Source: Chiloscyllium plagiosum
Taxonomy: Eukaryota
Direction of reading: 5' to 3'
DNA: 64,000 bases
Assembly: GCF_004010195.1 (NCBI RefSeq)
Contig: NC_057719.1
Span: 13,051,727 to 13,115,726, forward strand
Made by a program: the position numbers and the translations under genes. This document shows, piece by piece, positions 5,064 to 63,304 of this stretch (its first letter is position 1; every line of letters begins with the position of its first letter). Below the pieces are notes generated by a model. That model was not told where the DNA came from, did not search any database, and worked only from the letters and a program-made list of their open reading frames with translations.

Positions 5064-5653
5064 TGCTGTTAAAAAAGGGGAGGCCTTTGAGTCACCATCC
5101 ACCCCGCTGCCGCCCGCATGCTTTACTGGACTGTTCCTGTTGTAATGGATACTGCATGAGATGTACCACTGTGAAAATTCCTTCTAAGACAAATGGGCGA
5201 CTGGAAACATGTATTCCATTCAGAACACTTGGCCTTAATCAGGCCTGCCACTTCAGTCCAAAGCAGTACTCTTTCAGCCTGGCATGGGAGTCTCTCGTCC
5301 TGGCATGGACTCAGTGTGGCCTTCTGGTTTTGAGATGTTTCCTCAAGGTGCAGTCCCACTATGGCTAAGCACTTAAGGAATACTATAATGTTTGAAAATA
5401 CAGCTGTATTTCCTACTTAAAACCAAGCAGGTCTGTAATGTGTAACTTTTAACCGTATTGTGTATGTTTTGTGATGTACAATAATTACTGCAATGTTTAA
5501 CCTTTAACTTTTTTTTCTTCCTACCTTATTGTTATGATTCTGTAGCTAGGTATTTGTACCTAAGATGGCCTTGTGTGGCAATGTTTATACACTTTTCACT
5601 GTACTCCCTGTACTTGAGTACGCATGACAATAAAATCAAAATCCAACCAAATC
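5064..5653 (+). mobile_element. Composite non-autonomous repeat with Rex1-like 3' tail (copy A)
   Basis: GGACTCAGTGTGG at ~5307, T-rich spacer, GTACCTAAGATGGC at ~5556-5569, then CTTTTCACTGTACTC...CATGACAATAAAATCAAAATCC. These motifs are shared with 33885-34330 and 55185-55441. 5' boundary uncertain. Confidence 0.55.
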
Positions 5654-6929: not shown

Positions 6930-7330
6930 CTGGGGTCTCCTGGTTACTGGTGAGGTGGTGGCAGCAGCTCCTGGTTACAGTAGGCCTGGATCCAAGGACT
7001 CCCGGTTGCAGTAGGCCCAGGTCCAGGGACTCCTAGTTGTAGTAGGTCCGAATCTGGGGACCCCTTGTTGCAGTAGGACTGGATCCAGGGACACCTGGTG
7101 GCAGTAGGCATGGGCCCATGTGCTCCTGGTTACAGTAGGCCAGGATCCAGGAGCTCCTGGTTACAATAGGCCCGGTGCAAGACCCGTTGCCCTGATTCCA
7201 GGGTGCCCTAGTTTCAGTAGGCTTGGATTTGGGTCCCCTCGTTGTCGGCAAGGCGGTGGCGGCAGTGGAGCCAGGGGCTCCTAGTTGTGGGGAGAGTGTG
7301 GGTCCAGCATGGGACCTGGCATCAGTGCCC
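6930..7330. repeat. Degenerate ~31-bp GC-rich minisatellite
   Basis: Recurrent unit like GGATCCAGGGACTCCTGGTTGCAGTAGGCCT, roughly 10 diverged copies. Confidence 0.8.
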
Positions 7331-8407
7331 GGTTGGCGAGGTGGGCCCAGTGACGAAGCGATGGCTCCTGGAGAGTGGTGACTCTGACGTTGATGAGTCT
7401 GGTGCATGGGGCAGCTTGGGTACCATTGGTTAGACAGTTCAGGGCTCAGGACTCATGGTGGACGTGGCAGAGGGAAGTTGGACTCTCTTTGTTTTATCTT
7501 TTTATTCTTGAAGTATTTGAATGGTGGTGGATTGTGGAGACAGTTGAAACTGATCACTGGACTTTACTGGGTTGCTCATTGTGGAAAACAAGTGGAAATA
7601 GATCAATCATCAGAAAAAAAAGGTTCAATGCTTCAGGTCCTCTGGAGGCAAGGTGGACATATCCAGGCATCCACTGCGACAGAAGCCCACAGGATGCCCT
7701 GTATGGCAGTCTCTCTCTCCACTAATCCTCACCCTCACCTGTTGCAGAGTTAAAATCAGCAGTAGTGAGGTGAGATCTAGCCCTAAAGTAAGCATTTGTT
7801 GCCCACATAAGGCTCTCAAATAGTGCCAGGTCAGCAAGGTCACTGACTGACCTTCCCATCTTAGACTTAGTCAGGGTAGAGGCCGAAAAGTAATGTAACA
7901 GGGATCCCCCCACCTCTCTCCCTGCCTGAGTAATTGCTCCTGCCACCAAGTTCGCCATTGGAGGGGAAATGTCATACTGTCCAAAGTGTTTCCAGCTAGA
8001 CAGACAAGAAATGAGGGTTGGCACAAGATTTAAATAATTGCATAGGAGGTAAGAAAATGATCTTTCACACCAAAGTGTGGAATTCTCTCTCACAAAACAT
8101 CAATAGATCAAACTCCATAAATTACTTAAAAGGGCATTAGATAGTGACTTCATTAACATGAATATTGATGACAATAGGGAGGCAGCGAGGAGAGTAGAGT
8201 GAGGCTCGTCAGTTCAGACAAGTGGAACTGGCGACACTCTCTCTGTCGTTGGAGATGCCTGGCACTTGTGCTACATAGTTGTTACATCACGCTTATCAGT
8301 CCAAGTATTGTCCAAAGCTTGCAATGTAAACCACTTCATGAAGGAATTGTGAATGGAGCTGAGTATTGTGTAACCATCAACAATGATCCTGTCATCCCCT
8401 CCCTCTG

Positions 8408-9040: not shown

Positions 9041-9137
9041 GAATCTTCTCTGCTGAGTCTCATTTTGAGTGTTTGGCTTTGAACTGTTCCAGACTCCCAG
9101 GCAAAGCACTGCTGTGGTTTGTCACTGCGTTCTGCAT

Positions 9138-9269
9138 GATGGCTGACCAGGAAACTCTCCCAGTCTTACTGACCTCTACAGGATGGCTGACCAGGAAACT
9201 CTCCCAGTCTTACTGACCTCTACAGGGTGGCTGACCAGGAAACTCTTCCAGTCTTACCGTCTTCTGCAG
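9138..9269. repeat. 44-bp tandem triplication
   Basis: GATGGCTGACCAGGAAACTCTCCCAGTCTTACTGACCTCTACAG occurs twice exactly (9138, 9182), with a diverged third copy at 9226. Confidence 0.95.
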
Positions 9270-20014: not shown

Positions 20015-21460
20015 CTGGGTCAGAGTTAGGGTAGTAAGGTCAGAGAGGGGTCAGCAAGGTCAGACAGTGAGGTGCCGAGGTCAAAGACGATTCAGTATGG
20101 TCAGAGGCAGTTTGGTTGGTGGTGATGGAGACAGTTCAGTAGGATCAGAGAGAGAGAGAGATTGTTGAGGTCAGGAGGCATGGCTCAAGAGGGTCAGAGG
20201 TGGATTGTGAGTTTAGAGAAGATTCAGTAAATTCGGTAGGGAGAGAGATTGCTGAGGTCAAAGTTGGTCCAGTAAGGTCAGACACATGTTGCTGAGGTCA
20301 AGGGCATGTCAATAAAGTCAGAGATAGGTTTTTGAGGTCAAAGACTGTTCAGTAGGGTCAGGGATAGGTTTTTGAGGTTAGAGATTGTTTAGTAAGATCA
20401 GGGATAGAATTTTGAGGTTGGAGAAGGTTTAGTAGGGTCAGGGATAGGTTTTTGAGATCAGAGATAGTTCAGTAGAGTCAGGGATAGGTTTTTGAGATCA
20501 AAGGTAGTTCAGTAGAGTCAGGGATAGGTTTTTGAGATCAGAGATAGTTCGATAGGGTCAGGGATAATTTTTTTGAGATCAGAGATAGATCAGTAGGGTC
20601 AGGGATAGATTTTTTGAGATCAGAGATAATTCAGTAGGGTCAGGGATAGATGTTTGAGGTCTGAGACAGTTCAGTAGAGTCAGGGATAGGTGTTTAGAGA
20701 TCAGAGATAGTTCAGTAGGGTTAGGGATAGATTTTTGAGATCAGAGATAATTCAGTAGAGTCAGGGTTAGGTTTTTTGAGATCAGAGATAGATCAGTAGG
20801 GTCAGGGATAGGTATTTTGAGATCAGAGATAGTTCAGTAAGGTCAGGGATAGATCTTTAAGATCAGAGATACATCAGTAAAGTCAGGGATAGGTGTTTTG
20901 AGATCAGAGATAGTTCAGTGGAGTCAGGGATAGATTTTTGAGATCAGAGATAGTTCAGTAGAGTCAGGGTAAGGTTTGACAAAGGGTCAGTTAGACTCGA
21001 AACGTCATCTCTTTTCTCTCCTTACAGATGCTGCCAGACCTGCTGAGATTTTCCAGCATTTTCTCTTTTGTTTTCAGGGTAATGTTCTTTGAGATCAGAG
21101 ACAGTTCAGTAGAGTCAGGGATAGGTGTTTTGAGATTAGAGATAGTTCAGTAGAGTCAGGGATAGATGTTTGAGGTCAGAGATGGTTCAATAGGATCATT
21201 GACAGTTTTCTGAGATCAGGAATGGTTCAGTAGAGTCAGGAACAGGATGGTAAGGTCAGGGAGAAGTCATGAAGGTCAAAGATAGGTTGGTGAGGTCAAG
21301 GAGAGGTCATCAGGATTAGAGACAAGTTGGGATAGTCAGCGAGAGCATTAGTGATTCAGAGATAGAATGAGAATACCAGACAGGGGTTAACTAAGTCTGA
21401 GACAACTTGGTTAGGTCAGAGACGGTGGCATCAGGATCAGAAATGGGTCAGAAACGTCAA
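20015..21460. repeat. Minisatellite, ~40-bp dimer of ~20-bp subunits
   Basis: Core ~20370-21180 with unit GAGATCAGAGATAGTTCAGTAGAGTCAGGGATAGGTTTTT. Flanks decay to ~20-bp (A/G)GGTCAG units. Confidence 0.92.
20975..21075 (+). mobile_element. Short Penelope-derived element inserted in the minisatellite
   Basis: TTGACAAAGGGTCAGTTAGACTCGAAACGTCA...ACAGATGCTGCCAGACCTGCTGAG, flanked by the direct repeat TCAGGGTAA(G/T)GTT. Confidence 0.75.
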
Positions 21461-21824
21461 AGCAAAGGAATCCAGCTCAGACACTGGGTAGAAATGTTGA
21501 ACTTCCTGAAGGTTTTGCAATGAGTTCATGGGCCTGCACCAGGTGGATAAGATGGCAGTACGTTATTTAGTGTGGGGACATGGGATGTGTTGGTGGTGAG
21601 GATTGGAGGACAGTGGCAGCACTTTGAGACACCTTAGTGTTGTATAAGGTAGCAGTACTGAAAGAGTTTAGAAGAGGTGGCATTAGCTGTACCTAATCTA
21701 ATGAAGTCACACACTCTTTTAGAGAGTAGATAGGAAGTTTCACACTAGCTTTCAGACAGAGCGAATATATTTTATTCAGCCTCTGGGTATCTGAGCAATT
21801 ATGCCTGACGAATAATGTAATCGT

Positions 21825-22435: not shown

Positions 22436-23104
22436 TTCTGCTCGCCTGGATTAATTGATCATGATAACTAAGAATCATACCTTATTCTGTAAAGACTTTA
22501 TGGCAATGTAGTCTCTAGCACTGATCATTAGACAGGTCAGAGACAAAGCATAGACAAACTATATGCTGGTAGAGGTGGTAGATAGAGCCAGTATTGGAAA
22601 TCAAGGTGATACACCATGGTGATCAGTGGTAGGTATTCAAAGTCCATGCAGAGGTCTCACCACAAATAGATGAAGATTCATAGGAGAGCGTTTTGAAAAT
22701 AAGTGTGTTTACCACTTTAGGAGCATTATTAATTTTGGAAGATACACATGGTCAGTCAGCAACTGAAACATAACTAATCACAGAGATAGACAGCAGTAAC
22801 CATGGAAGCAACAGGGCATGCTCAGCATTGCAAAGACAAACTCTCATCAAGCAGCTGGTAAGAAGTATGGGGAAAGACTGTGGTCTTACAAAGGAAAGAA
22901 AAGCTATCTACACTGAGAAAAAGATAGAGACCTTTATGAAGGAGGCACTAGAGTGAGAAAGAAAAGTCTCCAGAAGGAAAGGTAACCATTTCAAAGGGAA
23001 ACAAAGACAACTTTACAAATATGATATAATGAGTTTTGAGAAGATTTGTAGTTCAGGTTGAGGTTCTGGATGTAGGTTTGCTTGCTGAGCTGGAAGGTTC
23101 ATGT

Positions 23105-23142
23105 CAGACGTTTCGTCACCCTACTAGATAACATCTTCAGTG
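23105..23142 (-). ncRNA. Minimal type I hammerhead ribozyme motif
   Basis: Minus strand: CA CUGAAGA U GUUAUC UAGUAG GGUGAC GAAA CG UC UG. Conserved core, stem II, GUC cleavage triplet and a very short stem III. Confidence 0.65.
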
Positions 23143-23248
23143 AGCCTCTGGACGAAGCACTGCTGATGATTCCTGCTTTCTATTTATGTGTTTGCATAAA
23201 CATATAAATAGAAAGCAGGAATCATCAGCAATGTTTCGTCCAGATGCT

Positions 23249-23286
23249 CACTGAAGATGTTACCTAGTATGGTGACGAAACATCTG
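23249..23286 (+). ncRNA. Minimal hammerhead ribozyme motif
   Basis: CA CUGAAGA U GUUACC UAGUAU GGUGAC GAAA CA UC UG, with CG changed to CA in stem III. Confidence 0.55.
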
Positions 23287-24612
23287 AACATGAACCTTCC
23301 AGCTCAGCAAGCAAACCTGCATCCATGACGTAACAACCCAAAGCAGAAAGCAAGGGAATGATAAAAGAGGCTCACAACAAGCATTGTGTCATGGAGATCA
23401 GGCTCCATGAAGGTGGAGCTGCAAGAGATTATGAAAGGCTAGAAAAGAAATTGAGACTGGGGCAGCAGATTTGGGAAGGCTTTGCAATTTATTTAAGCTA
23501 GAAAAAAAATACATTTAAAGTCATCTAGTGAAGGAGTCTAGCAGAAGAAGAAAAGTCAGGAGAAACTTAAGATTTCAAAGGACCGCAAGTGACGAATGAG
23601 ATTTTGCTTCCAACAGGGGGATTAACTTTTCATGTTGTGGTAATGCTTCTGCTATCCCTTGTAATATGACAACTACTTGTGGCTGGTATGGTATTGAAGA
23701 ATTCAATAGAGTACTTAGCACAGCACACTTTATATCCAAGCAATATATTCAGAGTCACATTTGTGCCTGGGCAGGTATTAGGCTATTCCAGTATGAAGAA
23801 CAGTACAGCATGCCATGCTTCATGTGGTCCAAGTTAAGATGGAGTCTGAAACCTTTATACCTCCAGGTGACAAGCAATGATAAAGCAAAGATATAATTAG
23901 CACATCTCTTAATGGTATACTGATATTCTAACTGTAAAACATAATGCAACAGTGACTGAATAATTAAACCACACTTTTGGCAGGAAGAACCTGAATGTCT
24001 GCAGCCAGAGTACTTTATTTAAAAAAAATTGTCTGGATGAAAGTGCTTAGTATTATAGACTGTGAAAAGTAGTTAAACATCCATTCTGCCTTGGGAAGAA
24101 ATGGAGGCCTTCCAAATTAACTGCAGAAGGTGGGAAAACTTGGAAGATGTGGGGAAATCCAGTAAAGAGTGCAGAGGTACAGTATTACAAAGGAACAGAT
24201 TTATAAATCATTACAGAATATCATTGTGGCTTTGCCTTCACCAACTGGACTGCAGTGATTCAAGAAGGCAGCTCATCGCCACCTTTTGAAAGGTAACCAG
24301 GGATGGACAATAAATGCTGACCCAGAAATCAGTGGCCACATCCTAAAAATGAACTTAAAAAATGCTATTAGAATTTAACGCTTTATTAAAAGACCAGCAA
24401 ATAAAGAAAATACTGAACAGAACATAACAAGCTCCATGTCAATTGAAATTAAAATAACATTTGTGAATGCAAATGTATACAAGAACAGATTGCAAGCAAT
24501 ATTTGAGTGGTACAGTCATGTTACAATAATAAGAATAAATATGCAGATTTTGAAAAGCTGGAAGGAGAAATCAAACATCCTGACAAATTCACTATCTCAT
24601 ATAGAGTATAGA

Positions 24613-33770: not shown

Positions 33771-33884
33771 AATGATGAAGTGGGTTTTGTGTAATTAAAA
33801 GCCATTCAAGAAATGAATCAGTTTCATTAATATTCATTTGGTTTTTGTTCCATTTTTAGCCACTGTTTAAGCCAATGCCAGCGA

Positions 33885-34330
33885 ATGAATAAATTAGCTT
33901 TATTGTCACATGTATTCACATGAGTACAGTGAAAAGTTCAAAAGTCGCCACTTATGGTGCCATCTTAGGTACAAGGTACCTCAGCACAGATTCTTCAGTA
34001 TACGTTCTTAGGAAAAAAATTAGAAAAATAAAGAATTGAAAAGTCCAGCATTACAGATGGTAGGAATTAATTAGAAAATAGGGAAATAAAATGTTCACAA
34101 CAATGGTCCTTCTAACTCAGTCCACACTGGCACCCAGCCTCCAGTCCGCACTGGGCCTTGACTCCAGACCGGACCAGGCATCACCCTGAGGCTCTTGAGA
34201 CCATTCTGGAATCACCTTGAGGCCAGAAGTCAGTGCTGCGGCCATGCCGGACCGAGAGACCACCACGCTGGGCTGCTGCTCTGAGACAATGAGAGTTACC
34301 AACAGTCCGACACTGCCCTGGAGTCTCCAG
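33885..34330 (-). mobile_element. Composite non-autonomous repeat with Rex1-like 3' tail (copy B)
   Basis: Minus strand: TGGCCTCAAGGTGA...CCAGTGCGGACT...CCAGTGTGGACT, T-rich spacer, GTACCTAAGATGGC, then CTTTTCACTGTACTCATGTGAATACATGTGACAATAAAGCTAATTTATTCATTC. Confidence 0.7.
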
Positions 34331-35149
34331 TAATTTCCAGGGTACCCCACCAATCTGTGGGAACAAATCGTTGAGGCCTTACATTCGATAAATGTTGGAT
34401 TTTCCATTAGTCATGAAGCAGTTGGGAGATGGATTGAGCAAGTTGTTCAGAGGCCCAGGTTAGCGGTCTGGGTCAAATATCACCCTAGCAGCTGGGGAAT
34501 TTAAACTCATTCAATAAAGCTGGGAATTGAAAGCTAGTTTTGTTAATGATAGCTTGGTTATTTTTTGAAAATAAATGTACTTTAGAGATGAAAATCTGCC
34601 AACAATATCCGTTACCTATATATGGTTACAGATGTACAGGTGTAATGAACTCTGAAATGGCCTAGCACACCATTCAGTCCAAAAACAATAAGAGATGTTT
34701 GACTTGCTGATGATGTTCAAATCCCATTGATGAACAATTAAAACAAAACTAACTTATTAGATATTACTATTATAGAATTTTAGAGATTGATATCACAGAA
34801 GAAGGCCCTTTGGCCCATTGCATCGGTGCTGGTCAAAAACTATTCTAATCCCATCTTCCAGCATTTGGCTCATTGTCTCAGCATAACGAGTGCATGTCTA
34901 AAGCATTATTAGACTATTAATTCCTGTTTTTTTTCAAAATTGAATTCAAATTCCACCTTCAGCCATAGTGGGATTTGAATCCAGGTCCTAAAGCATCATC
35001 TGATTTTTTTCTCCCCTGTTTTAATAATCCAACACTTATACCACTAGGCCATCATCTCCCCTCATGGTGGATAGAGTTAGTGGTACAATGATTGATGTTC
35101 TTTTCCTTTGAATCAGTGAAACTCTACATTAGCACCTACAATAATATCA

Positions 35150-36056: not shown

Positions 36057-36602
36057 CATAGAATCATAGAATCTCTCCAGTATGGAAGCAGGCCTTTTGA
36101 CCTAGCTAAGCCACACTGATCCTCCAAAGAGTATCCCACACAGGTCCACTCCCCTACCCTATCCCTGTATCCCTGCATTTCCCGTGGCCAATCTTCCTAA
36201 CCTCCACATCTTTGATTTGATTTATTATTGTCACATGAGCCTCGGTACAGTGAAAAGTTTTGTTTTGTGTGCAGTACAGGCAGATCATACCATAAAAAGT
36301 GCATTTAGGTCATGGAAACAGAGCAAGGAACATAACGTTACAGCTGCAGAGAAGGTGCACAGAGAGTGAGATTAACATTTAAATTTAAGAAGTCCATTCA
36401 GATGTGTATTAAAAACAGGGAAGAAGATGTTCTTGAATGTATTTGTGTATAAACTTGACATCTTTACACTGTGGGAGAAAAGCCCAGAGGAAACCCATAC
36501 AGACATGGGGAGATTGAGCAATTGCTACACAGCCCTGCGAGTGGGATTGAACCCAGGTCCCCAGTACTTCAAAGCAGCAATGCTAACCACTGCACTACCA
36601 TG
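36057..36602 (-). mobile_element. HE1-type SINE split by a Rex1/Babar insertion
   Basis: SINE 3' half at 36057-36213 and 5' half at 36460-36602. Confidence 0.8.
36214..36458 (-). mobile_element. Rex1/Babar-type LINE 3' end
   Basis: Minus strand encodes FKNIFFPVFNTHLN, like the Rex1 C-terminal FKNSFFP..IRLLN, then tail CTTTTCACTGTACC...CATGTGACAATAATAAATCAAATC. ACATCTTT is duplicated on both sides. Confidence 0.7.
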
Positions 36603-44318: not shown

Positions 44319-44635
44319 TTTAGATTAGATTCCCTACAGTGGGAAACAGGCCCTTTGGCGCAACCAGTTCACACTGACCCTCTGAAGAGTAACCCACCCA
44401 GACCGATTGCCCTCTGACTAAAGCACCTAACACTACGGGCAATTTAGCATGGCCAATTCACCTGGCCTGCACATCTTTGGACTGTGGGAGGAAACTGAAG
44501 CACCCAGAGGAAACCCACACAGACACGGGGAGAGCGTGCAAACTAGCCACAGGCAGTCGCCCAAGGCCGGAATCGAACCTGGGACCCCTGATGCTGTTTG
44601 GCAGCAGTGCTAATCACTGAGCCACCGTGCTGCCC
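44319..44635 (-). mobile_element. HE1-type V-SINE nested in LINE
   Basis: TTAGATTAGATTCCCTACAGTG...CACTGAGCCACCGTGCTGCCC. Confidence 0.93.
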
Positions 44636-46557
44636 CATTTTAATATAGTTCTGTTGTTGCTGATGGTTCACAACTCCTCATGGATGTGCAGGTTTGAGTT
44701 CCTGGAATTGTTTGAAATCCATCCCATTTGGTACTCGGTGGTTGTGCCACACAACACATTGGAGGCTATCCTCAAGGTGAAAGCCACAAGGACTGTGTGA
44801 TGGTCACTCTTATGTTCAATATGAAGGAGTACTGATTCACCAGCTGAGGGTGGGTGATAGGTTACAATCTGCAGGAGGTTTCCTGGCCCAACCTGTACCT
44901 AATGCTATGAGATATCACGGGTCGAAGTTGAGGACTGCAAGGCAATTTCCTCCTTCCCCATAAAGCACAGTTCTGCCACACCTGGAGAGTCAGTCTTCCA
45001 CTATCACTCCTGGACATACCCAATGTGGCTGGAACATTGTACCTAAGGTTTAATTCCATGAGTATGAATATGTCAGACTGTTATTTGACTAATCTGTGGG
45101 ACAATTCTTTCAATTTATCAGTAGCCTCCAGAATGTAATAAGGAAGGTCACGTGGGGCGGACAGTGCTGGGTTTGTCATTGTCCTTTCCTGTGCTGCCAT
45201 GATTCCCATTGATCCGGATTTCATTCCTCGTTTTAGACTTTGCAATAGCTTGATACATCTGAGTCATTTGCCAGGCCATTTCAGGGTGTAGTCAGAAGTC
45301 TACCACATTACTGCATGTCAGGAGTGACATATCAGCCAGACCATGTAGGAGTGGGAGATTTCATTCCCCTAAAGGACATTAGTCAGTTACAATAGGCAAT
45401 AGTCACCGTTGTCAAAGAGTGTGGTGCTAGACCCCACCAGTACCCTTCCACTGACACTCTCATTCGTTTGGCTGAACTGGTCCCCACCCTCAATAATACC
45501 TCCTTTGAATCTTCCCATGTCCTCCAGACCAAAGGGGCAGCCATGGGCAACCCAGTTATCTGTCTCTTTGTTGAGTACATGGAACAGTTCATCTTCTGCA
45601 ATTACACAGGCACCATTCCCCACCTCTTCCTCCACTACATCAATGACTAGATCAGTATCACCTCGTGCTCCCCTTCCTGGACCTCACCAACTCCATCAAC
45701 GGTGATTGATTCAACACTGACATTTTCTACAAGCCCACTGACTCCCACAGTGACCTGGACTACACCTCCTCCCAGAGTGCCTCCTGTAAAAATGGTCCCA
45801 CTTATTCCCAATTCCTCCGCCTCTGCTACATCTGCTCCCAGGAGGACCAATTCCACCACAAAATATATCAGATGGCCTCCTTCTTCAAAGACTGCAATTT
45901 CCTCTCCCACTTGGTCAATGATGTCCTCCAGCACATCTCCTCCACTTTCCGCACCTTTGCCTTTGAACCCAACCAACCACAACAAGGACAGAACCCTTTG
46001 GTCCTCACCTTCCACCCCACCAACCTACGGACATATCGCATCATCCTCCACCATTTCCGCCACCTACAAACAGACCCCACCACCAGAGATATATTTCCCT
46101 CCTCACCCCATCTGCGTTCAATAAAGACCATTCCCTCTGTGACTCTCTTGTCAGGTCCATGCCCCTCACCACTCACCCTCCCCTCCCGACACATTCCCCT
46201 GCCACCGCAGGAATTGCAAAATCTATGCCAACACCACCCCCTTATCTCCGTCCAAGGCCCCAAAGGATCCTTCCACATCTGTTAGAGAACATCTTTGGGA
46301 GACATGGATGAAACAACCTCCCCATTGCCCCGTGGCCGAATACTTTAATTCCCCCTCCCATTCCCCCAAGAACCTGCAGGTTCTGGGTCTCCTCCCAAAG
46401 TCTGGAGGAAGAACGCCACATCTTCTGCCTAGGACCCTCCAACCACACGGAATCAATGTAGATTTTACCAGTTTCTTCATTTCACCTCCCCCCACCTTAT
46501 CCCAGATCCAACCTTCCAACTCGGCACTGACACTTGAGCTGTCCTACCTGTCTATCC

Positions 46558-47029
46558 NNNNNNNNNNNNNNNNNNNNNNNNNNNNNNNNNNNNNNNNNNN
46601 NNNNNNNNNNNNNNNNNNNNNNNNNNNNNNNNNNNNNNNNNNNNNNNNNNNNNNNNNNNNNNNNNNNNNNNNNNNNNNNNNNNNNNNNNNNNNNNNNNNN
46701 NNNNNNNNNNNNNNNNNNNNNNNNNNNNNNNNNNNNNNNNNNNNNNNNNNNNNNNNNNNNNNNNNNNNNNNNNNNNNNNNNNNNNNNNNNNNNNNNNNNN
46801 NNNNNNNNNNNNNNNNNNNNNNNNNNNNNNNNNNNNNNNNNNNNNNNNNNNNNNNNNNNNNNNNNNNNNNNNNNNNNNNNNNNNNNNNNNNNNNNNNNNN
46901 NNNNNNNNNNNNNNNNNNNNNNNNNNNNNNNNNNNNNNNNNNNNNNNNNNNNNNNNNNNNNNNNNNNNNNNNNNNNNNNNNNNNNNNNNNNNNNNNNNNN
47001 NNNNNNNNNNNNNNNNNNNNNNNNNNNNN
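46558..47029. other. Assembly gap (N run)
   Basis: Run of N. Confidence 1.
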
Positions 47030-47088
47030 TCCCCCAGCCCCACCCCCTCCCATTTATCTCTCAGCCCCCTTGTGCCTCCCCCTTATTC

Positions 47089-47116
47089 CTGATGAAGAGC
47101 CTATGCTCGAAACATC
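47089..47116 (+). ncRNA. Minimal hammerhead ribozyme motif
   Basis: CUGAUGA A GAGC CUAU GCUC GAAA CA UC in the Penelope terminal repeat. Confidence 0.5.
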
Positions 47117-48109
47117 GATTCTCCTTCTCCTCGGATGCTCCCTGACCAGCTGTGCTTTTCCAGCACCACACGCTTTGACTCTTATCTCCAGCATCTACAG
47201 TGCTCACTTTCTCCCAATCGTTGCCATTGGACTAGCTTTTTATTTCTAGAATTTGTTTTATTGAATTCAAATGTCACCCTCCGCTGTGGTAAGATTTGAA
47301 TTCATTTTCCCACAGTATTAGCCTAGGCACTGGATTATTGATAGAGTGACAGCATCACTGCCTCCTCACTTCTTGACAGTTCTTGATAACTTTGACACTT
47401 CTTGACAATTCTTGAAGGATTTGTCAAATATTTAACAGTTTCATAGCTTCGAGTGACATATACTTTGTTTGAGCACATTCTTCTGTACAGATAACAATCC
47501 CAAATGATACCTGAATTACCCCATCTGACAAATAAAGTGTACCTGATCCTCAGCATGAATACTTGAGCCTCACTCCCAATGTGTCCTGGGTCTCCAAAGG
47601 AATACTGTAGCTATTCCAAAGAAACGTGGTGAGACCAGACCATTCCTGAGCTGCTCTGTCTTCTACACTTTGTGATTAATGCAGTGGAGGTTACCCAAGT
47701 GGGATTTTGATGAAGATAGCTGATCATTTAAATGGACAGCTGCCTCTGGGATCTGTATATGAGTCAAGCCTGACCTAACTCCTGGAATAAGACTGTCATT
47801 TCAGGCCATTATTGTCATGTTGGAGATGCTCACAGATATGGAGAAGACCTGGAACATAAAACAAAATCTAGGATATTACTCTAAATAACATACAACACTC
47901 AGTCAGTTCTGATTGGAGCTCTATATCCAACTCTGTCCACCAACCTTTAGATAGGAATTGAAGACTTTAGTTTGGATATGGTTCCGAGGTTGAGGAATGA
48001 CAATTACACTGACAGACTGGGGAAACTGGGGTTGGTCTACAGGCAATAGCAAAAGCTATGGAGATTGTGGCTTTTAAAATCTTGAAGGATTTAGAAAGAG
48101 TGTCTGCCC

Positions 48110-52254: not shown

Positions 52255-52440
52255 GAAAAACAAAGAAGTGCAAATGCTAGAAATATGAAACAAAAATAAA
52301 AATTGTTGGAAAAACTCAGCAGGTCTAGCAGCATCTGTGGAGAGAGAAACAGAGTTAACATTTTGGGTCCAATCTGAAGCATTAACTCTGCTTCTCTCTC
52401 CACAGATGCTGCCAGAGTTTTTCCAGCAATTTCTAATTTG
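52255..52440. mobile_element. Inverted pair of short Penelope-derived termini
   Basis: GCAGCATCTGTGGAGAGAGAAACAGAGTTAA followed by TTAACTCTGCTTCTCTCTCCACAGATGCTGC. Confidence 0.8.
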
Positions 52441-52811
52441 CAAGAATACACAGTATTTACTTTAAAGTGCACGGAGCATCCTGGTATCTATATGTCAGTT
52501 TCTTATTTAAAACAATGTCTTTTCCAAGGTACAACATTCAGAACTGAGCAGTAATGTTATAGTCATAGAAATCCACAGCAATGATAAAGGGCCTTCTGCC
52601 CATTGAGTCTGCACTGGTTAAAAATAACCTCCTCATCCCATTTTCCAGCACTTGGCCCATAGCCTTGTATGCTTTGGCACTACAAGTGTGCATCTAAAAT
52701 ATTATGAGAGTTTCTATCTCTATCCAGCTTACAGGCAGTGAGTTCCAGATTACCACCTGCCTCTGGGTGAAACGATTTATCCTTATGCCTCCGCTAAACC
52801 CAAAAGCTTGA

Positions 52812-55184
52812 ACTCCCAGCCTCAGTGTAGACTCACACTCCCGACCTCAGTATAGACTCACTCTCCCTGCCTCAGTGTAGACTCACTCTCCCTGCCTCAG
52901 TGTAGACTCACTCTCCCGGCCTCAGTGTAGACTCACTCTCCTGGCCTCAGTGTGGACTCACACTCCTGGCCTCAGTGTGGACTCACACTACCGACCGCAG
53001 TGTAGGCTCACTCTTCCTGCCTCAGTGTGGACTCACACTCCCGGCCTCAGTGTGGACTCACACTCCCGACCTCAGTGTAGACTCACTCTCCCTGCCTCAG
53101 TGTAGACTCACTCTTCCTGCCTCAGTGTGGACTCACACTCCCGACCTCAGTGTGGACTCACACTCCCGGCCTCAGTTTAGGCTCACACTCCCGGCCTCAG
53201 TGTAGACTCACACTCACGACCTCAGTGTAGACTCACTCTCCCGGCCTCAGTGTAGACTCACTCTCCCTGCCTCAGTGTGGACTCACACTCCCGGTCTCAG
53301 TGTGGACTCACACTCCCGGCCTCAGTTTAGGCTCACACTCCCGGCCTCAGTGTAGACTCACACTCACGACCTCAGTGTAGACTCACTCTCCCGGCCTCAG
53401 TGTGGACTCACTGTCCCGGCCTCAGTGTGGACTCACTGTCCCGGCCTCAGTGTGGACTCACTGTCCCGGCCTCAGTGTAGACTCTGCCTCCCGGCCTCAG
53501 TGTGGACTCACTCTCCCGGCCTCAGTGTGGACTCACTCTCCCGGCCTCAGTGTAGACTCACTCTCCCGGCCTCAGTGTGGACTCACTCTCCCGGCCTCAG
53601 TGTGGACTCACACTCCCGGCCTCAGTGTGGACTCACACTCCCGGCCTCAGTGTGGACTCACACTCCCGGCCTCAGTGTGGACTCACACTCCCGGCCTCAG
53701 TGTGGACTCACACTCCCGGCCTCAGTGTGGACTCACACTCCCGGCCTCAGTGTGGACTCACACTCCCGGCCTCAGTGTGGACTCACACTCCCGGCCTCAG
53801 TGTGGACTCACACTCCCGGCCTCAGTGTGGACTCACACTCCCGGCCTCAGTGTGGACTCACACTCCCGGCCTCAGTGTGGACTCACACTCCCGGCCTCAG
53901 TGTGGACTCACACTCCCGGCCTCAGTGTGGACTCACACTCCCGGCCTCAGTGTGGACTCACACTCCCGGCCTCAGTGTGGACTCACACTCCCGGCCTCAG
54001 TGTGGACTCACACTCCCGGCCTCAGTGTGGACTCACACTCCCGGCCTCAGTGTGGACTCACACTCCCGGCCTCAGTGTGGACTCACACTCCCGGCCTCAG
54101 TGTGGACTCACACTCCCGGCCTCAGTGTGGACTCACACTCCCGGCCTCAGTGTGGACTCACACTCCCGGCCTCAGTGTGGACTCACTCTCCCGGCCTCAG
54201 TGTGGACTCACACTCCCGGCCTCAGTGTGGACTCACACTCCCGGCCTCAGTGTGGACTCACACTCCCGTCCTCAGTGTAGACTCACTCTTCCAGCCTCAG
54301 TGTAGACTCACACTCCCAGCCTCAGTGTAGACTCACTCTCCCGACCTCAGTGTGGACTCACTCTCCCGGCTTCAGTGTGGACTCACTGTCCCGGCCTCAG
54401 TGTGGACTCACTCTCCCGGCCTCAGTATGGACTCACTCTCCCGGCCTCAGTGTGGACTCACACCCCTGGCCTCAGTGTAGAATCACACTCCCGGCCTCAG
54501 TGTAGACTCACTCTCCCGGCCTCAGTGTGGACTCTCGCTCCCGGCCTCAGTGTGGACTCACTGTCCCGGCCTCAGTGTGGACTCACTCTCCCGGCCTCAG
54601 TGTAGACTCACTCTCCCGGCCTCAGTGTGGACTCACTGTCCCAGTCTCTGTGTAGACTCACTGTCCCGGTCTCTGTGTAGACTCACTGTCCCGGTCTCTG
54701 TGTAGACTTACTCTCCCGGCCTCAGTGTGGACTCACTGTCCCGGCCTCAGTGTGGACTCACTCTCCCGGCCTTAGTGTGGACTCACACTCCCGGCCTCAG
54801 TGTGGACTCACTCTCCCGGCCTCAGTGTGGACTCACACTCCTGGCTTCAGTGTGGACGCACACTCCCGGCCTCAGTGTGGACTCACTCTACCAGCCTCAG
54901 AGTGGACTCACACTCCCGGCCTCAGTGTGGACTCACTCTCCCGGGCTTAGTGTATACTCTCACTCCCGGCCTCAGTGTAGACTCACACTCCTGGCCTCAG
55001 TGTAGACTCACTGTCCCAGCCTCAGTGTGGACTCACTCTCCCGCCCTCAGTGTAGACTCACACTCCCAGCCTCAGTGTAGACTCACTGTCCCAGCCTCAG
55101 TGTGAACTCACACTCCCGGCCTCAGTGTGGACTCACTCTCCCAGCCCCAATGCGGACTCACTCTCCCAGCCCCAATGCGGACTC
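52812..55184. repeat. 25-bp minisatellite, about 95 copies
   Basis: Unit CACTCCCGGCCTCAGTGTGGACTCA, nearly perfect at ~53600-54270 and diverged at both edges. Confidence 0.98.
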
Positions 55185-55441
55185 GATTCCTGGCCTCAAG
55201 GTGAAGCTCAGTGTGGTCTGTGTGGGTAGTACTGATATTCTGTACTCTTGTTTCTCTATTTTTCCAATTTATTATTGGACATTTAATTTCTTTATTTTTC
55301 TATCTTTATTTCCATTTGAATTTGTACTTACGCACCTGTACTTTGGTAGCTTGGTACCTAAGATGGCCCCCTAAGTGATAACTTGTAAATGTTTCACTGA
55401 ACGCATGTGAGTACATGTGACAACAAAGTGAATTCAATTCA
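55185..55441 (+). mobile_element. 3' part of composite repeat with Rex1-like tail (copy C)
   Basis: TGGCCTCAAGGTGA, T-rich spacer, GGTACCTAAGATGGC, then TTTCACTG...GTACATGTGACAACAAAGTGAATTCAATTC. Confidence 0.7.
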
Positions 55442-55712
55442 CTTTTATTCACTTCAATTAAATCCATGCCCCGGTCATTGAAGGGAAAAGTGTCTTCCTG
55501 TCGACACTATATACACCCCTCATAATTTTATACATCTCATCATGACCCCTCTGCTTTGAGGAAAACAACTACAGTCTGTGCAATCTCTCTCAATAACTGA
55601 AACTCTCCAGGCCAGGCAGTATCCTGGTAAATCTCTTCTCCACCCTCTCCAGTGCAGAAATGTCCCCCCATGATGTGGATTCTTGAACTGCACACCATGC
55701 TGCAGCTGTGCT

Positions 55713-55853
55713 GAAGTGGATACTGCAGATGTTGGGGATTAGAGCCAAGATTGGAGTGGTGCTGGAAAAGCACAGCAGGTCAGGCAGCATCCAAGGAGCA
55801 GGAAAAGCGACGTTTCGGGCAAAAACCCTTCATCAGGAATGAGGCCATTCCTG
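55713..55853 (-). mobile_element. Penelope terminal element with intact hammerhead core at 55809-55836
   Basis: Minus strand CUGAUGA A GGG UUUUUG CCC GAAA CG UC. Flanking TG(C/T)AGCTGTG duplication. Confidence 0.75.
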
Positions 55854-62987: not shown

Positions 62988-63304
62988 AGCATGGTAGCGC
63001 AGTGGTTAGCACTGCTGTCTCACAGCGCCAGGGAGCTGGGTTCAATTCCCGCCTCAGGCAACTGTCTGTGTGGAGTTTGCACATTCTCCCCGTGTCTGTG
63101 TGGGTTTCCTCTGGGTGCTCCGGTTTCCTCCCACAGTCCAAAAATGTGCAAGTTAGGTGAATTGGCCATGCTAAATTGCCTGCAGTGTTAGGTGAAAGGG
63201 TAAATGTAGGGGAATGGGTCTGGGTGGGTTGCTCTCCGGAGGGTCGGTGTGGACTTGTTGGGCCGAAGGGCCTGTTTCCACACTGTAAGTAATCCAATCT
63301 AATC
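62988..63304 (+). mobile_element. HE1-type V-SINE inserted in a minus-strand CR1 3' end (~62975-63640)
   Basis: Full SINE, preceded by ATAGAGTCATAGAG and followed by CR1 3' UTR. Confidence 0.93.

Follow-up and report, generated by a model that had tools for sequence, protein, structure and literature searches.

The locus raises the question of how a 25-bp minisatellite came to stand directly in front of a stretch that ends like a LINE, and whether the two belong to one mobile element. It lies in a 64,000-nucleotide stretch of DNA from Chiloscyllium plagiosum, called the window here, and all coordinates are positions in this window. A sequence-only reading had taken the array for the expanded VNTR of a composite retroposon of SVA-like design. 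The analysis indicates that the array, the body behind it and the tail are one insertion, called copy A below. In addition, there is roughly an even chance (0.5) that copy A belongs to an old non-autonomous, LINE-tailed retroposon family whose GC-rich part gave rise to minisatellites, which then expanded at their own loci. The features on which the argument rests are collected in Table 1.

Table 1. Features of the array-bearing copy A, its host element and related elements in the window.
Feature	Position	Strand	Basis or remark
Host CR1-type LINE, left half: last ORF2 codons and 3' end	52558-52798	-	nhmmer model 7-262, E 7.6e-23; tblastn
About 11-13 bases between host and array (5' junction), either added nucleotides or decayed host	52799-52811	.	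no convincing target-site duplication
25-bp minisatellite, 95 units in a single register	52812-55185	+	TRF, unit-by-unit comparison
Homogeneous core of the array, 26 units	53612-54261	+	unit-by-unit comparison
Degenerate GC-rich end of copy A: TGGCCTCAAGGTGA, identical in copy B, plus one more unit-like core	55186-55222	+	alignment
T-rich spacer, common to copy B and to copies elsewhere in the genome	55223-55345	+	alignment, reads
GTACCTAAGATGGC module, invariant in copies A, B and C, missing from stub D	55346-55389	+	alignment
LINE-type 3' end: TTTCACTG, short hairpin, TGTGACAA(T)AAA, short oligonucleotide repeats	55390-55441	+	
Host CR1-type LINE resumes: ORF2 upstream of the break	55457-55710	-	nhmmer model 310-556, E 6.4e-32; tblastn
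Copy B: spacer and tail as in copy A, with a longer degenerate GC part and no array	33880-34345	-	
Copy C: GC block common with copy B, different middle, same tail as copy A, no array	5277-5645	+	
Stub D: insertion of ~250 bp inside a tRNA-type SINE, different body, last ~45 bases as in copies A-C	36214-36460	-	

When run on the window, TRF delimits the array at 52812-55198, with a period of 25, 95.5 copies, 91% matches and no indels. The units are far from equally similar. The core carries a single substitution across its 26 units, or 0.04 differences per unit, and the flanking groups of 32 and 37 units average 2.1 and 2.5. Moreover, a block of four units is repeated 150 bp further on (53162-53261 and 53312-53411). 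The perfect core, the ragged edges and the block duplication together point to growth of the array in place. At the 3' end the last units decay into TGGCCTCAAGGTGA (55191-55204) and one further unit-like core, and both the TRF bounds and the motif positions (55191-55423) confirm that the array runs directly into the modules shared with other copies. An assembly artefact at this junction is ruled out by record 2 of X1 and record 9 of X5 among the public reads; the length of the array is given as assembled, since an artefact is excluded for the 3' junction only and the window contains 708 N. A coding reading of the array was dropped. The open frames of 249-324 aa that cross it exist because the 25-mer has no stop codon, and the Pfam match to LRR_10 (E 1.3e-8) includes no stretch that passes by itself.

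The array and body of copy A are flanked by two colinear halves of one minus-strand LINE, which is assumed to belong to the CR1 clade. The halves were identified by tblastn and by an nhmmer profile built from 11 copies in the window, whose match to the right half covers 55475-55710; Pfam found RVT_1 alone in a related copy of this LINE elsewhere in the window. Both searches bear out the earlier observation that the block interrupts a CR1 element that resumes behind it. The break does not lie in the 3' UTR, where it had been placed, because translation puts it within the last ~55 codons of ORF2. About 10-15 host bases are missing or unrecognisable at the break, allowing for a 12-bp deletion relative to organism C. 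Organism C has 12 extra bases at 55476 compared with the window and with organism B, and these restore the length of the CR1 frame; the difference could possibly serve as a marker for the order of the species splits. Short palindromic or dispersed repeats occur at 55712-55836, 23045-23349 and 52293-52439, one of them inserted in the right CR1 flank. No target-site duplication above chance was found at copies A, B or C, the best match across the junctions being 7 of 8 bases. This absence counts for little because target-site duplications of the L2 and CR1 clades are 3-5 bp long (PMC4245944) and truncations and extra 5' bases occur.

Behind the array, ~250 bp of body and tail are common to the two other copies in the window. 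The order of the modules is TGGCCTCAAGGTGA, a T-rich spacer (55% T), GTACCTAAGATGGC (55354-55367) and CATGTGACAA (55414-55423). The recurrence of these modules at ~33885-34330 and ~5064-5653, noticed earlier, is upheld, on the minus strand for copy B and on the plus strand for copy C. The units there are scattered and do not form an array: none of the 24 TRF rows of the window is a tandem array in copy B or copy C. In the tail region the alignment scores are 201 for A-B, 85 for A-C and 100 for B-C, and the maxima of 1000 shuffles each are 53-56. The corresponding scores of the GC parts, 45, 37 and 55, are reached by 0 of 1000 shuffles, the maxima of 43, 36 and 48 being barely exceeded. Between TGGCCTCAAGGTGA and the spacer, the degenerate GC-rich end of copy A is 78 bp shorter than the matching stretch of copy B, and within the spacer the majority letters of other genomic copies in the reads often agree with copy B. 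The alignments of copies A, B and C and the reads thus support a family made of a GC-rich part, a T-rich spacer and a LINE-type tail. They do not support a composite of named parts with a common 5' head.

No common 5' head was found. The array adjoins the host CR1 with ~13 bp between them, and truncation could have removed a head. The Pol III promoter head that defines a SINE is not seen in copies A, B and C, which may be truncated; neither an A box nor a B box was detected in them, and such boxes were found in a control SINE. ARAGORN returned 0 tRNAs and Rfam 0 matches, and none of the 53 frames around copies A, B and C, stub D and a fifth element matched a Pfam family at its own cut-off. The other pattern scans gave 0 matches. 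Three matches to the tail motif, two loci in metagenomes and one in viral contigs, were rejected: they are one and the same coding sequence, which is unrelated and gives no BLAST match against the window. The papers searched contain no account of such a shark family, which may nevertheless already stand in a repeat library such as Dfam or Repbase.

The tail itself resembles the 3' end of a LINE. Two pairs of its hairpin (55398-55415) are broken in copy A. In the reads of other copies the majority letters at 55400 (232 of 283) and 55403 (266 of 287) differ, and with them the hairpin has all seven pairs. In no single copy is the hairpin more stable than its shuffles (z of -1.84, -0.75 and +0.39). 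Within the module at 55346-55389, just before the tail, other copies read AAGATGGCGCC. Some Rex1 and L2 elements presumably begin with such a word, a binding site of YY1. A solo LTR reading was dropped, the ends of the element being variable short oligonucleotide repeats. The LINE from which copies A-C would have their tail may be of the Rex1 type.

Stub D has no AAGATGGC module and shares with copies A-C the last ~45 bases only. Its 5' end reads as the short peptide TNTFKNIFFPVFNTHLNG, which may be the end of a LINE ORF2; the likeness is presumably to the end of a Rex1-type ORF2. The peptide matched no Pfam family, its Atlas scores are below 0.8, and it is too short to be placed in a clade. 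Stub D also bears on a different explanation of the body, namely that an autonomous LINE subfamily of the Rex1 or L2 group has this body as its long 3' UTR, that the copies are 5'-truncated before ORF2, and that a motif of the UTR seeded the minisatellite. The absence of a SINE head and of a Pol III box is consistent with this, as is the drop in read depth from tail to spacer, which 5' truncation would produce. Moreover, there is a weak alignment between the spacer of copy B and the 5' part of stub D (7 of 500 shuffles, against 105 of 500 for copy A and 167 of 500 for copy C). However, stub D has its apparent ORF2 end ~200 bp from the tail and a different body, and no trace of ORF2 was found upstream of the tail in the three window copies, over at least 450 bp in copy B and 2.6 kb in copy A. 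A UTR origin of the body is considered rather unlikely. Elsewhere in the window, decayed reading frames interrupted by a run of N lie at 45403-47249. These frames are assumed to resemble the end of a Penelope-type reverse transcriptase.

The relationship between the 25-bp unit and the GC-rich part of the family was examined in several ways. Unit-like words in copies B and C are scattered, with 13-14 matches of 18, and 52 such words occur in the window outside the array. They form three clusters in copy B and two in copy C, and 0 of 300 shuffles did so for either copy; a GC-rich control gave counts of 16 and 167 of 300. The unit aligns colinearly to the GC block of copy C with one 5-bp gap, at a level reached by 75 and 207 of 10,000 shuffles for two variants of the unit. 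Against the matching block of copy B the alignment is not significant (3,701 and 4,409 of 10,000 shuffles). Among 6,058 blocks of the window, the highest score belongs to a copy of a tRNA-type SINE (33), above copy C (30) and copy B (28). Because the likeness is modest in copy C and non-significant in copy B, and the SINE is equal or better, the derivation of the unit from the GC part is likely from its position and unproven from sequence. The central part of the tRNA-type SINE (63061-63115 and 44490-44545) is as unit-like as copies B and C, which may reflect chance or a shared origin. Other tandem repeats in the window include a 40-bp minisatellite of ~1.4 kb with degenerate edges (20017-21480), a 44-bp repeat of 2.9 copies (9131-9257) and, at 47367-47423, repeats with units of 10 or 29 bp.

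Judged from public reads, the genome contains many more units than copy A can explain. Runs of three organisms contain the right flank, and four of the 24 runs listed were placed on 55110-55560 at 80% likeness. From the raw reads of another individual (X19; 1,934 Mb), 2,254 were placed on this stretch. Their depth is ~1,700 on the units, drops to 4.8 immediately behind them, and is ~10 on the spacer and 0 over a low-complexity part, where reads get cut; it then rises to 94 on the AAGATGGC module and to 329 on the tail. The units make up ~0.013% of the read letters, ~190 times the expectation from the array of copy A alone, on the assumption of ~1,700 unit reads of 150 bases, a number estimated from peak depth. 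For a genome of 3.0-4.0 Gb this corresponds to 395-527 kb of unit DNA, where the array of copy A alone predicts 8-11 reads, and to at least 510-680 copies of the tail. Most unit reads are variants other than those of copy A. The letter at 55137 differs in 1,287 of 1,705 reads, and among the 24 of 689 loose ends listed, the ends close in CAA, CAG or CCAT instead of CAC.

The X19 depth of 4.8 at the junction, compared with ~1,700 on the units, suggests that most arrays may lie without such a body, although a comparison made at a threshold of 80% to a decayed copy is weak. It is also what would be expected if the 25-bp family were a minisatellite in its own right, possibly descended from the tRNA-type SINE, that spread at the DNA level and landed in a similar motif of copy A or converted it. 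The match of the unit to that SINE, as good as its match to copies B or C, points in the same direction. Nevertheless, this would require two insertions at one point of the CR1 element, the array grades into the family's own motif, and the same junction occurs at a second locus. Independence of the array is thus the most improbable of the explanations considered. The second locus is represented by record 1 of X1, from the species of the window, which extends from units across the junction to the spacer (55112-55263) and differs at 33 of 153 positions (78% identity). Since the record for the copy A locus in the same run has 1 difference in 406, record 1 must come from elsewhere. Record 17 of X9, from organism C, also joins units to the body, with 23 differences in 177 positions (87% identity), and may be a third locus or the orthologue of copy A. 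Among the 24 of 3,861 pieces listed, there is one clear second units-to-body locus. The proposal that the family seeds minisatellites gains from the excess of units and from this locus, and is held back by a likeness of unit to body that is modest overall and non-significant in copy B.

The reads also date the insertion. Record 9 of X5, the orthologue in organism B, covers 55113-55560 with 24 differences and 10 gaps, and ~three units are visible in it. Record 24 of X9, the orthologue in organism C, contains the junction of tail and CR1. Each of the two is ~5% diverged, which indicates that copy A was inserted before the three species separated.

A further explanation follows the SVA2 and SVA design more closely. 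Here a master RNA would carry a long array, perhaps with a 5' head or promoter upstream, and retrotransposition would have done most to spread the unit DNA; copy A would be 5'-truncated inside the VNTR, and copies B and C would be older subfamilies. The start of the array at most ~13 bp from the host break is what truncation inside a VNTR would leave. In addition, much of the unit DNA of three species has one period and register, and the second locus has units on the body. Against this, two of the three window copies have no array, the units are homogenised locus by locus, and no head is seen. Summed contig depths give units/tail ratios of ~7 and 9 in organisms A and B against 0.75 in organism C; such sums cannot be read as copy numbers, but the ratios agree with an array that grew in place later on. 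This explanation, with its array-bearing master RNA and a spread of units mainly by retrotransposition, is rather unlikely. It is similarly rather unlikely that sharks have a VNTR retroposon of their own, independent in origin from primate SVA, in the form of a headless non-coding RNA in which GC-rich units of 25 bp are followed by the T-rich spacer and a tail of Rex1 type, and which would have distributed about half a megabase of minisatellite across the genome. If the array does travel in RNA, the family would be a non-primate counterpart of SVA2. Behind a GC-rich array of 31-bp units (6968-7172, 6.6 copies) within a plus-strand element at 6930-7560, a GC-rich body precedes a T-rich stretch, a layout like that of copy A. 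The alignment scores of this element to copies A, B and C are low (27-35, without a shuffle control), and no tail was recognised. If this element shares the layout, there would be a class of VNTR retroposons rather than a single family.

The preferred reading, a LINE-tailed retroposon with minisatellites grown in place, can be put as a series of steps. The family would borrow the last ~45 bases of a LINE, comprising the hairpin, AATAAA and short repeats, and the sharing of this tail suggests that the reverse transcriptase of the partner LINE copies it. The upstream part would be GC-rich and variable in length, with degenerate copies of a motif like the 25-bp unit. Copy A, probably 5'-truncated in this GC part and holding one or a few units, would have entered the end of the CR1 ORF2 before the three shark-like species separated; the insertion and its age are shown by the alignments and the reads. 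A few extra 5' bases may have been added at insertion, as in inserts of the L2/CR1 clade. The run of units would then have grown and been homogenised in place through slippage, unequal exchange or conversion. The same growth at other loci would yield a dispersed minisatellite family with locus-specific variants. Its abundance and its variants are seen in the reads, whereas the number of loci and their link to the element are for the most part conjectural. On this reading, a cartilaginous-fish case is added to the short list of dispersed minisatellites tied to a retroposon. The minisatellite family can be measured, at ~0.013% of the genome and with orthologous loci in three species. As it stands, the result is one of repeat annotation, with no sign of host function.

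Several known systems share parts of this organisation. Ohshima (2013) described SINE/LINE pairs with shared 3' ends, among them SINE2-5_NV/Rex1-24_NV and the shark pair HE1/HER1, and where a non-coding element and a LINE have a tail in common, trans-mobilisation is usually indicated (PMC3747384). Similarly, the non-coding copies A-C end in the ~45 bases of the LINE-like stub D, but unlike these pairs they have no detected head derived from an RNA gene. Among the table rows of that paper compared here, there is no shark family with a Rex1 tail. As described for Rex1, a conserved 3' UTR is followed by oligonucleotide repeats (PMC6274825), and the conserved 3' stretch of copies A-C likewise passes into short oligonucleotide repeats. 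Minisatellites derived from Alu, B1 and MaLR have short units born within a retroposon between short direct repeats (PMC6947457). They are described as expanding by slippage, conversion or unequal exchange, as the array considered here may have done, and they differ in parent element and host lineage.

The resemblance to the VNTR composites of primates is partial. In the descriptions of SVA2, SVA, LAVA, PVA and FVA, GC-rich tandem units lie upstream of a unique 3' part, the elements are non-coding and the array becomes longer or shorter at the DNA level (Lupan et al., 2015, PMC4432496; Kojima, 2018, PMC5753468). All of this has probable parallels in copy A. The parts that define SVA are absent. 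Copy A has no 5' CT-hexamer head, no Alu-like or SINE-R part, no poly(A) tail, in whose place there are oligonucleotide repeats, and no long target-site duplication of the L1 type (13-15 bp). The units of the composites are 30-50 bp in those accounts and 25 bp here, and most visible copies lack an array, which was found in one of the three window copies and, in the reads, at one further units-to-body locus. SVA2 and the VNTR composites are, moreover, described there as hominoid-specific (PMC4432496; PMC5753468). Copy A thus does not qualify for the SVA group; its way of working might resemble that of SVA2, provided that the RNA includes the array.

The SINE-derived satellites (sSats) of squamates, as characterised by Vassetzky et al. 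(2023, PMC10702118), appear to be a closer published model for copy A than SVA. In the portions of that study relevant here, an sSat consists of an array and a longer end piece in which the sequence of the parent element continues to its terminus. The corresponding stretch of copy A is 55186-55441, which matches copies B and C and hundreds of other copies. The sSats occupy many loci, have units more alike than the copies of the parent and longer loci that are more uniform, and show locus-specific variants and an abundance that varies between related species; the 25-bp family probably resembles them in these respects, its abundance and its variants being seen in the reads. In contrast, the units of sSats are 70-290 nt long and come from tRNA-headed SINEs (PMC10702118), while the unit here is 25 bp, no tRNA head was detected and the likeness of unit to parent is only modest. 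Overall, the organisation of copy A, an array joined to the terminal stretch of its probable parent, seems closer to that of the sSats than to that of SVA.
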